Assembly: GCF_988242995.1 (NCBI RefSeq)
Contig: NZ_OZ547043.1
Length of the DNA stretch: 64,000 nucleotides
Reading direction: 5' to 3' (one strand)
A model generated the notes under the pieces. The model had not been told where the DNA came from, ran no database searches, and saw only the letters and a list, made by a program, of their open reading frames with translations. A program made the position numbers and the translations under genes. The number at the start of each line of letters is the position of its first letter. Positions within the stretch are counted from its first letter, which is position 1. Below, one piece after another: positions 36,825-38,962 of the stretch.

Positions 36825-37470
36825 GTCGAAAATGATTGTGCGCACCAAATTTATTGATCGCGCCTGTCACTGGACCGTGGTGATTTGCTTCTTTCTGGTG
36901 GCGCTGTCCGGGATTTCGTTCTTCTTCCCGACGCTGCAATGGCTGACGCAAACCTTCGGTACGCCGCAGATGGGGCGCATTTTGCACCCGTTCTTCGGCA
37001 TTGCGATTTTCGTCGCGCTGATGTTTATGTTTGTGCGTTTTGTGCATCACAACATCCCGGATAAGAAAGATATTCCGTGGCTGTTGAACATTGTCGAAGT
37101 ATTAAAAGGCAATGAGCACAAAGTGGCGGATGTTGGTAAGTACAACGCCGGGCAAAAGATGATGTTCTGGTCGATCATGAGCATGATTTTCGTGCTGCTG
37201 GTGACCGGGGTGATTATCTGGCGTCCGTACTTTGCGCAGTACTTCCCGATGCAGGTTGTTCGCTACAGCCTGCTGATTCACGCGGCTGCGGGTATCATCC
37301 TGATCCACGCCATCCTGATCCATATGTATATGGCATTCTGGGTGAAAGGATCGATTAAAGGGATGATCGAAGGGAAGGTGAGCCGTCGCTGGGCGAAGAA
37401 ACACCATCCACGCTGGTATCGTGAAATCGAGAAGGCAGAAGCGAAAAAAGAGAGTGAAGAAGGGATATAA
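36817..37470 (+). CDS. fdnI: Formate dehydrogenase-N gamma (cytochrome b556) subunit
   Basis: ATG at 36817 gives [22 protein letters not shown]… (217 aa); overlaps the fdnH stop by 8 nt; membrane protein with haem-ligand histidines. Confidence 0.9.
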
Positions 37471-37488
37471 TCTCTTTTGAACTTTAAG

Positions 37489-37525
37489 CTGAAAATGGCG
37501 CTTTAAGAAGCGCCATTTTTTTTAT
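37489..37525. terminator. Rho-independent terminator after fdnI, shared with convergent yddM
   Basis: Hairpin aaaatggcgc-tttaag-aagcgccatttt followed by a T-run (ttttttttatt). Confidence 0.65.
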
Positions 37526-37806
37526 TGCGTAACCAGACGGCGCAGTCGCGACACATCCACCGTTTTTTCTGCCTCTGCCAGACTCCAGGCGTTTTGCAGA
37601 TTCAGCCACATTTGCGGCGAACTGCCGATCACCACGGAAAGTTTAATCGCCATTTCTGGTGTCAAAGCTGCTTTTCCGGTCAGCAATCGGCTTGCCGTTG
37701 AGGGCGCAATTTCCATTGCTCTGGCAAACTCGCGCAGGCTGACATTAAGTTCGTCCAGTGATTCCTGAATAATGTCCCCCGGGCGGGGATGATTGGCCAT
37801 TTTCAT
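37522..37806 (-). CDS. yddM: HigA-like XRE-family helix-turn-helix protein (antitoxin-like, no adjacent toxin gene)
   Basis: ATG at 37804-37806 gives a 94-aa product [57 protein letters not shown]… with an HTH motif. Confidence 0.7.
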
Positions 37807-37951
37807 TAGTGTCTTTACTCTCAGTAGCGTTCCTTCTCTGGGAACACTATCATTATTGTTCCTTCCTACGCAACAATAATCCATTTAGCCATTTCGTGTT
37901 GGAGAGTGTGCGATGCTGCGACCCGAACATGGCAGTCGCAGCAAAGGATTC

Positions 37952-38962
37952 TTAGCGGCGGAAATCAATCACCATACGGCCACGGATTTTGCCTTCTTCC
38001 ATCTCAGTAAAGATGGTGTTGATGTCCGCTAACGGACGCAGGGCGACTTTCGGCACCACTTTGCCTTCGGCGGCAAACTGGAAGGCTTCGGTGAGATCCT
38101 GGCGCGTGCCGACCAGCGAACCGACCACTTCAATACCATCCAGCACAAGGCGTGGGATGTCCAGGCTCATAGACTCCGGCGGCAGACCGACAGCCACAAC
38201 ACGACCGCCTGCTCGTACAGCATCAACCGCCGAGTTAAACGCAGCTTTAGCTACCGCTGTCACCACCGCAGCGTGAGCGCCACCGGTTTTTTCCTGCACA
38301 ATTTTGGCGGCGTCTTCAGTGCGTGAGTTAATCGCTAAAACAGCGCCCATTTCGGTTGCCAGTTTTAACTGCTCATCATTGACATCAATGGCGATCACTT
38401 TCGCGTTAAAGACATTCTTCGCGTATTGCAGGGCGAGGTTACCCAGACCGCCAAGACCGTAGATAGCAATCCACTGCCCTGGACGAATTTTTGACAGCTT
38501 AACGGCTTTGTAGGTGGTGACCCCCGCACAGGTAATGCTGCTGGCCGCCGCCGAGTCCAGAGCATCTGGCACTTTTACCGCGTAATCGGCGACCACGATG
38601 CACTCTTCCGCCATCCCGCCATCAACGCTGTATCCGGCATTTTTAACAGAACGGCAGAGGGTTTCGTTACCACTATTACAGTATTCGCAATGACCGCATC
38701 CTTCGTAAAACCACGCCACGCTGGCACGATCGCCTGGTTTTAATGAGGTGACACCTGGGCCAACTTCTGCCACCACACCAATACCTTCATGGCCCAGAAT
38801 TACGCCGGTTTTGTCACCAAAATCGCCATTCTTAACATGAAGATCGGTATGACATACACCACAACACTCCATTTTTAGCAGGGCTTCGCCATGTTTCAGT
38901 GAGCGCAGTGTTTTATCCGTAACGTCAACATGATGATCCTTCGTAACAACTGCAGCCTTCAT
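37952..38962 (-). CDS. adhP: Zinc-dependent alcohol dehydrogenase (propanol-preferring)
   Basis: ATG at 38960-38962 gives [14 protein letters not shown]… (336 aa); zinc-ligand motif GHEGIGVV and structural-zinc cysteines ([10 protein letters not shown]…C); Rossmann GLGGLG. Confidence 0.9.

Follow-up and report, generated by a model that had tools for sequence, protein, structure and literature searches.

An open reading frame of 94 codons, ending in ...RRLVTQ, occupies positions 37522-37806 of the minus strand of the stretch of DNA analysed here (64 kb, referred to throughout as the window), with its ATG at 37806-37804 and its TAA stop at 37524-37522. The frame is open further in the 5′ direction, up to an ATG at 37884 that would allow a product of 120 amino acids; the start used here is the one that agrees with the construct deposited in the PDB, with the RefSeq annotation, where the gene bears the name yddM, and with the TGATG overlap between toxin and antitoxin genes in the strains that carry both. 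The first-pass annotation had described this gene as a lone XRE-family member of the HigA type between fdnI and adhP, and this description is borne out by the reading frame itself and by a score of 93.7 bits (cutoff 47.7) against TIGR02607, "HigA family addiction module antitoxin", the NCBIfam equivalog for HigA antitoxins, with a match that spans positions 1-80 of the 81 in the profile. The product also contains a Pfam HTH_3 domain (PF01381, E 7.6e-10, residues 14-65), and over its 94 residues it is 100% identical to the "antitoxin HigA" of PDB entries 2ICP and 2ICT, that is, the HigA of E. coli CFT073, whose structure has been described as that of a HigA dimer homologue (PMC6987408). By the Pfam match and by this identity, YddM has the N-terminal XRE/Cro-type helix-turn-helix and the compact dimeric fold of its family. 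Judged from these comparisons, the gene is E. coli yddM, the antitoxin half of a HigB-HigA pair.

On one side, fdnI runs on the plus strand and ends at 37470, 51 nt from yddM and convergent with it; between the two there is a hairpin terminator common to both genes (37491-37520), with a 13-bp stem followed by a T-run on the plus strand, which on the minus strand comes straight after the yddM stop and is the only feature found downstream of it. On the other side lies adhP, also on the minus strand, which ends with a stop codon at 37952-37954, and from there 145 nt lead to the yddM start; it had been noted previously that adhP begins about 150 nt away, but what lies there is its 3′ end, since adhP is co-oriented with yddM and upstream of it. 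Directly after the adhP stop there is a second hairpin (37914-37943, minus strand, TGCTGCGAC-N12-GTCGCAGCA, 9-bp stem), which is kept in all the alleles aligned; it has no T-run, and for this reason read-through from adhP into yddM is possible. In comparison with yddM of K-12 (b1477), the protein is identical, the location between fdnI and adhP is shared, and the locus is devoid of a toxin gene, as it is in K-12 and HS; the window differs at 6 synonymous sites and does not have the two 178-bp REP-containing repeats that K-12 has between fdnI and yddM. These repeats vary in number: K-12-type strains (L003, 700-1075) have two tandem units of ~178 bp, each with REP-like palindromes and the terminator hairpin in a further copy, G3/10 has a single unit, and the corresponding interval of the window (37471-37521) has none.

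The toxin gene is missing from the window. With the orthologous 92-aa toxin as query, tblastn at permissive settings over the whole 64 kb returned a best E value of 0.33, which is the level of chance, and nothing meaningful appeared in the interval 37400-38000, where degraded RelE or HigB remnants were sought; the five small reading frames near yddM, the 26-codon N-terminal extension up to 37884 among them, had no Pfam match at E<=1. The earlier statement that no HigB/RelE-like reading frame stands on either side of the gene is therefore upheld, and neither of these searches revealed an intact small toxin gene overlapping yddM.

The other half of the pair is found when the locus is followed through other genomes. 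A megablast search with positions 37300-38200 of the window against 5426 complete E. coli genomes reveals a length polymorphism: in a subset of the strains, a gene annotated as "RelE/ParE family toxin" separates adhP from yddM. Of the 5426 genomes, 1331 have toxin DNA, always as one copy, which adjoins yddM in the records inspected; in the intact loci the gene takes the position of the 145-nt spacer of the window. In strain CH4796 it measures 279 nt (92 aa, WP_000605676.1) and lies directly upstream of yddM, the TGA of the toxin overlapping the ATG of the antitoxin as TGATG. The E. coli toxin belongs to the HigB-like family PF05015 (64.4 bits), aligns end-to-end with HigB of Proteus vulgaris Rts1 (4MCT_B, E 8e-32), and keeps the catalytic His54 and the C-terminal Asp-Tyr-His (DYH) of the latter; the substitution H54A inactivates P. 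vulgaris HigB (PMC12266136). Not all of these copies are whole. A frameshift of 1 nt gives a 278-nt version, which is characteristic of ST131 strains and in AVS0662 bears the annotation of a pseudogene; it occurs in 16 of 40 rows sampled at even intervals along the ranking of toxin-bearing genomes, and one bat isolate has a toxin gene with an in-frame deletion of 9 nt.

For the comparison across species, one genome per species was scanned with YddM as query, which gave 41 loci, and in these the toxin, AdhP and FdnI were then located by tblastn. The order toxin-yddM-fdnI is intact in E. albertii, in Escherichia sp. MOD1-EC7003, in eleven Citrobacter genomes, in Pluralibacter, in an Enterobacter and in "Enterobacteriaceae bacterium 89"; the E. 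albertii toxin is 100% identical in amino acids to that of E. coli, those of the eleven Citrobacter genomes are 82-89% identical, and adhP stands upstream of the pair in the Escherichia loci and in two from Citrobacter. As this order is intact in E. albertii, in Escherichia sp. MOD1-EC7003, in Citrobacter and in others, the pair beside fdnI is the ancestral state, and the loss of the toxin is derived. In other loci the toxin has decayed and the antitoxin has been kept: the toxin gene is internally deleted in Citrobacter sp. FP75, frameshifted in C. portucalensis and in one Xenorhabdus, and reduced to a C-terminal fragment in another Xenorhabdus, and Chimaeribacter californicus has an antitoxin with no toxin at all. 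The comparison of these loci thus shows that toxin decay with retention of the antitoxin has occurred independently in several lineages.

From the sequences of these orthologous loci it is essentially certain that yddM derives from a toxin-antitoxin pair, as had been proposed at first reading with the term "relic"; the toxin gene is there in the 1331 E. coli genomes, in E. albertii, in Citrobacter and in other genera. The arrangement that characterizes antitoxins of the HigA type, directly downstream of a HigB toxin gene in one operon, is absent from the window and present at the orthologous locus of those E. coli genomes and of the outgroup genera, and since the orthologous loci have the HigB toxin upstream, YddM is a member of the HigA family by descent. 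A complete HigBA module comprises functional genes for both toxin and antitoxin; here the toxin gene is absent, which means that this genome has no toxin-antitoxin system at the locus. For annotation purposes, yddM is to be treated as an orphan antitoxin or regulator of the HigA family, and not as a sign that such a system operates here. Both the gene and its orphan state are already known: the pair has been listed as ParE-2/HigA-2 in the AIEC strain NRG857c, with genes of 279 and 285 nt, and HS and K-12 have been reported to possess the antitoxin partner alone at that locus (Bustamante and Vidal, PMC7232551).

The region upstream of yddM, which on the minus strand reads TTGTTGCGTAGGAAGGAACAATAATGATAGTGTTCCCAGAGAAGGAAC, contains two symmetric sites that could serve as operators. 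The proximal one, O2 (37829..37845), has the form GTTCC-N7-GGAAC, and the distal one, O1 (37858..37874), the form GTTGC-N7-GGAAC on the minus strand; each is a putative binding site for a YddM dimer, and they stand 12 nt apart. The 17-mer GTTSC-N7-GSAAC has only these two matches in the 64-kb window, both upstream of yddM, where 0.26 would be expected, and two or more such sites occurred in none of 100 shuffles. Between them, the 12-nt spacer (37846..37857, AATAATGATAGT on the minus strand) holds the sole -10-like hexamers, AATAAT and GATAGT, and is a putative promoter core. A scan for consensus sigma-70 promoters upstream of yddM gave no site at the 9/12 threshold, and the position of the promoter is accordingly a matter of inference; the spacer is proposed as its core by the layout of the P. 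vulgaris hig promoter, whose operators O1 and O2 overlap the -35 and the -10 (PMC12266136), and by the entry for the RpoD holoenzyme that genomic SELEX lists in the yddM/adhP region of K-12 (PMC3946193).

The pattern of conservation points in the same direction. In the 20 upstream regions that were aligned, from Escherichia, Citrobacter, Pluralibacter, Enterobacter and one Enterobacteriaceae isolate, the half-sites are invariant and the N7 spacers variable, to the extent that the columns without variation coincide almost exactly with the four half-sites (GTT.C, G.AACA, GTTCC and GA.GGAAC); this would be the footprint expected of a pair of operators for a helix-turn-helix dimer. The two sites are statistically unexpected and conserved, and they are candidate operators through which YddM may repress its own promoter. 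An alternative geometry is offered by a 22-bp palindrome (37841..37862, GGAACAATA-ATGA-TAGTGTTCC) formed by the inner half-sites of O1 and O2, which is the sole intergenic part that matches the toxin-bearing alleles by blastn (21/22, E 4e-6); the dimer site might then be this N10 palindrome instead of the N7-spaced pairs of half-sites.

With three junction probes, nearly all of the 5426 genomes can be assigned to an allele class. Besides the 1331 with toxin DNA, the toxin-less junction of the window, shared with K-12 and O157:H7, is found in 2811 genomes at a coverage of at least 80%, and in 2993 with any match; a second toxin-less haplotype, of the JL05 type and including O111 strains, accounts for 1289 genomes. 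Both retain the operator half-sites. In the JL05 haplotype (L009, 601-716), O1 is the exact reverse complement of that of the window (GTTCCTTCCTACGCAAC versus GTTGCGTAGGAAGGAAC), that is to say, a 17-bp inversion bounded by the half-sites has kept these and flipped the spacer, an outcome suggestive of template switching at a quasi-palindrome. In a less common variant, SJC33 (L008, around 600-630), a deletion of 29 bp, which is exactly the period from one operator to the next, fuses the left part of O1 to the right part of O2 and removes the -10-like core, so that yddM may be promoterless in that strain. At the same locus of SJC33, an IS200/IS605 tnpA stands between yddM and fdnI.

The short segment at 37807..37828 (minus strand), which separates the proximal operator from the start of yddM, comprises the deletion scar and the leader, at the site where other strains have the 279-nt higB. 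The junction in the window reads ...GGAACGCTACTGAGAGTAAAGACACTAATGAAAATGG, while in intact alleles it reads ...GGAACAAGGATGAAGAGATGATAATGAATTTC...[toxin]...GACTATCACTGATGAAAATGG. The breakpoints are ambiguous, as neither of two alignments is clearly better: one has the deletion extend between the ATGAA repeats at the starts of toxin and antitoxin, a microhomology, and the other leaves the last codons of the toxin, CAC-T(G/A)A, in place as CAC-TGA. One further deletion type, apparently independent, was seen in the O157:H7 strain TR01 and set aside as a singleton among the 5426 genomes, the other O157:H7 strains having the junction of the window. The TR01 allele (L005, 620-750) is a mosaic, with a left flank of the toxin-bearing type, an O1 of the toxin-less type and, joined at AAT, the final 47 nt of higB; either genuine recombination or an error of assembly could account for it.

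The remainder of the promoter region does not readily fit a simple excision. Outside the operators, the toxin-less segment (37807-37915) agrees with the toxin-bearing Escherichia alleles (L002, L011-L016) at the level of random sequence, about 35% identity, with 13-16 of 40 positions upstream and 10 of 21 downstream, in divergent segments of 41 nt upstream and 22 nt downstream that flank the operator block. In contrast, the sequences bordering this divergent spacer, namely adhP, its hairpin and yddM, are 97-100% identical between the two kinds of allele, and the hairpin at 37914-37943 marks the left edge of the region in which they differ. In the non-operator spacer, the toxin-less alleles are less similar to the toxin-bearing alleles of E. 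coli than those of Citrobacter are, and the operator half-sites are the sole sequence that toxin-less and toxin-bearing E. coli promoters have in common. Given a spacer at the random level between flanks that are 97-100% identical, either this was not a simple clean deletion or an unusual local change took place afterwards. A donor of the divergent promoter was found neither in plasmids, where the matches were chromosomal DNA or fragments captured by IS26, nor among the 41 related loci of other species. The possible origins include a complex replacement, a polymorphism of long standing whose flanks have recombined, and a turnover driven by the quasi-palindrome. That the toxin-less and toxin-bearing states have long coexisted as a polymorphism, instead of being separated by one simple and recent deletion, is a tentative idea which we hold to be distinctly the less likely course, with some real chance of being correct. 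If it were true, the orphan would stand behind a rebuilt or imported promoter, in which operators turn over through quasi-palindrome inversions such as the flip of O1, and the locus would constitute a worked case of domestication, in which an antitoxin has become an independent regulator with a regulon of its own.

The antitoxin itself has been preserved with or without its partner. The gene was found in 5412 of the 5426 complete E. coli genomes, at full length (at least 80% coverage) in 5408, of which about 4080 have no toxin, and the protein accession is the same, WP_000781370.1, in every E. coli locus inspected from this set, toxin-bearing or not. Among six toxin-less yddM alleles, 8 of the 8 segregating sites are synonymous, as are all 11 differences between the window and E. 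albertii. About three quarters of the sites in a coding sequence are nonsynonymous, and the fact that all the changes are nevertheless synonymous indicates strong purifying selection on yddM. Several polymorphisms are common to toxin-bearing and toxin-less alleles, and hence part of this synonymous-only signal may predate the loss of the toxin or reflect recombination. Thus, in the word "relic", the idea of a former toxin-antitoxin pair holds, and that of a gene in decay does not, for it is being kept by purifying selection. Moreover, because the protein is identical to that of the toxin-bearing strains, where it stands beside an intact toxin, YddM should still neutralise that HigB if the latter were re-acquired.

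What a toxin-less HigA could do is suggested by its closest characterised relative. The HigB-HigA system of P. vulgaris Rts1 (PDB 4MCX/4MCT, 6CHV, 9CHL) is a toxin-first operon, like the ancestral yddM pair; its HigA is a fully folded XRE helix-turn-helix dimer with which residues 7-87 of YddM align at E 1e-18, and its promoter has two symmetric operators, as the yddM promoter appears to have. In contrast, the Rts1 system is borne on a plasmid and complete, whereas the yddM locus is chromosomal and without a toxin; the operators are unlike in sequence, those of E. coli hig are not bound by the Proteus complex (PMC12266136), and the centre-to-centre distance is about 29 bp in yddM and, as deduced from contact positions, about 22 bp in Proteus (PMC12266136). 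Repression of Phig by P. vulgaris HigA reaches about 211-fold without HigB and is no stronger with it (PMC12266136), from which it follows that a HigA devoid of its toxin can be a fully competent autorepressor.

A second likeness lies within K-12. YbaQ (PDB 2EBY; 113 aa) is another orphan of the HigA family, with a HigA-type helix-turn-helix that matches YddM at E 5.6e-9, although it is encoded at another locus and is a distant paralogue; its toxin partner, "ParE-1", is present in AIEC and absent from K-12 (PMC7232551), and it too is a DNA binder confirmed by ChIP-exo (Gao et al., PMC6237786). The HigB-HigA system of K-12 that bears the name, YgjN-YgjM, is alike in this name and in its toxin-first order, but it belongs to a different family. 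The toxin of that system is not known to be of the PF05015 type. The helix-turn-helix is C-terminal in K-12 HigA and N-terminal in YddM and CFT073 HigA (PMC6987408).

For YddM itself, the evidence of activity comes from K-12, which is toxin-less. In the work of Gao et al. (PMC6237786), the tagged protein is one of ten candidates with ChIP-exo peaks, and a DNA motif was derived from these; an HTH_3 domain and reported DNA binding in vivo for the identical protein thus coincide, as in other members of the XRE family. This lends partial support to the suggestion, made in the first-pass annotation, of a transcription factor acting in trans. A CRISPRi screen has described expression changes consistent with YddM binding sites (2025 preprint, bioRxiv 10.64898/2025.12.20.695731), a genetic-interaction map ties yddM to stress regulators, and the Keio yddM mutant is hypersensitive to epetraborole, a phenotype that was not complemented (PMC12457515).

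Taken together, these data are best accommodated as follows. The ancestor that Escherichia and Citrobacter share would have had, on its chromosome, a toxin-first type II HigB-HigA operon flanked by adhP and fdnI. The 279-nt higB would then have been deleted in the lineage to which the window belongs, along with K-12, O157:H7 and about three quarters of the sequenced E. coli, leaving the antitoxin gene directly behind the old hig promoter. One YddM dimer would sit on each of the GTTSC-N7-GSAAC operators flanking the -10-like core and, as P. vulgaris HigA does, YddM would repress its own transcription with no need for the toxin. With no toxin to restrain, it would have become a small, self-regulated XRE repressor, active also on a few other chromosomal sites. 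In other words, yddM is quite probably an orphaned and domesticated HigA whose toxin was deleted, and which has been kept behind a two-operator promoter as a repressor of itself and of a few other targets; within this reading, we infer the operator assignment and the autorepression from the sequence pattern and from the analogy with Proteus.

Other explanations have to be set against this one. The gene could be a neutral remnant, the functionless leftover of a dead module whose decay has yet to come. Toxin-antitoxin modules usually erode with the toxin lost first and the antitoxin lingering, and exactly such toxin-first decay is seen repeatedly here, in the ST131-type frameshift, in the deletion of Citrobacter sp. 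FP75 and in the frameshift of C. portucalensis; nor has a clear phenotype been established, the epetraborole sensitivity being uncomplemented (PMC12457515). A functionless gene, however, is hard to reconcile with a full-length yddM in nearly all the genomes, some 4080 of them toxin-less, with a protein free of amino acid changes in the E. coli loci inspected from the complete-genome set and only synonymous variation among the toxin-less alleles, with half-sites retained in both toxin-less haplotypes, and with the binding to DNA in vivo reported for K-12 (PMC6237786), so that we regard neutrality as improbable. The notion that the toxin partner of YddM is encoded elsewhere in the genome fares worse still, and would seem very unlikely indeed. 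Room for it is left by the 64 kb over which this genome was inspected, and by megablast being blind to paralogues below about 85% DNA identity; but no HigB-like sequence is present in the window, no genome has more than one copy of the toxin DNA, which is confined to the 1331 genomes where it stands beside yddM, and the published survey has the antitoxin alone at the locus in K-12 and HS (PMC7232551).

A role in anti-addiction or immunity, whereby the orphan YddM would neutralise HigB arriving with plasmids, phages or recombined DNA and thus prevent post-segregational killing, is just as improbable as neutrality. It has in its favour that YddM is identical in toxin-bearing and toxin-less strains, and should for that reason neutralise the chromosomal HigB of E. 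coli, that 539 plasmid records, including plasmids of Providencia, E. coli and Salmonella, match HigB, and that such a role has been proposed for orphan antitoxins in reviews, although in the words of one of them it "remains to be demonstrated" (PMC7354431). Yet the plasmid homologues are at most 56% identical to the lost toxin, with the exception of three matches at 90% or more, of which at least one, the sole one listed (a record of 4.9 Mb), is a chromosome filed as a plasmid. At toxin identities of 56% or less, toxin-antitoxin pairs are usually specific for their own partners. The domesticated, self-regulated repressor is the reading we favour.

Beyond a correct annotation, the importance of the locus is small. 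It does provide a clean natural series for the erosion of a toxin-first system, with an antitoxin that would persist as an ordinary repressor: the intact pair, the frameshifted toxin, the deleted toxin with two promoter haplotypes, and a haplotype in which the two operators are fused into one. The idea of anti-addiction could also be examined there, with a protein of solved structure.

Two observations concern copies of this region in other records. In the 65-kb plasmid p1585m1_D (L010, 235-2600), a fragment bounded by IS26 contains a truncated maeA, the whole of adhP and about 80% of the adhP-yddM spacer, namely its first ~89 nt, with both operators; it is a chromosomal adhP captured by IS26. 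Lastly, a contig of 214 nt labelled as Clostridium sp. CMCC3677 (L041) is 98% identical to the promoter and start of yddM in the window, and is almost certainly a contamination of that assembly with E. coli.
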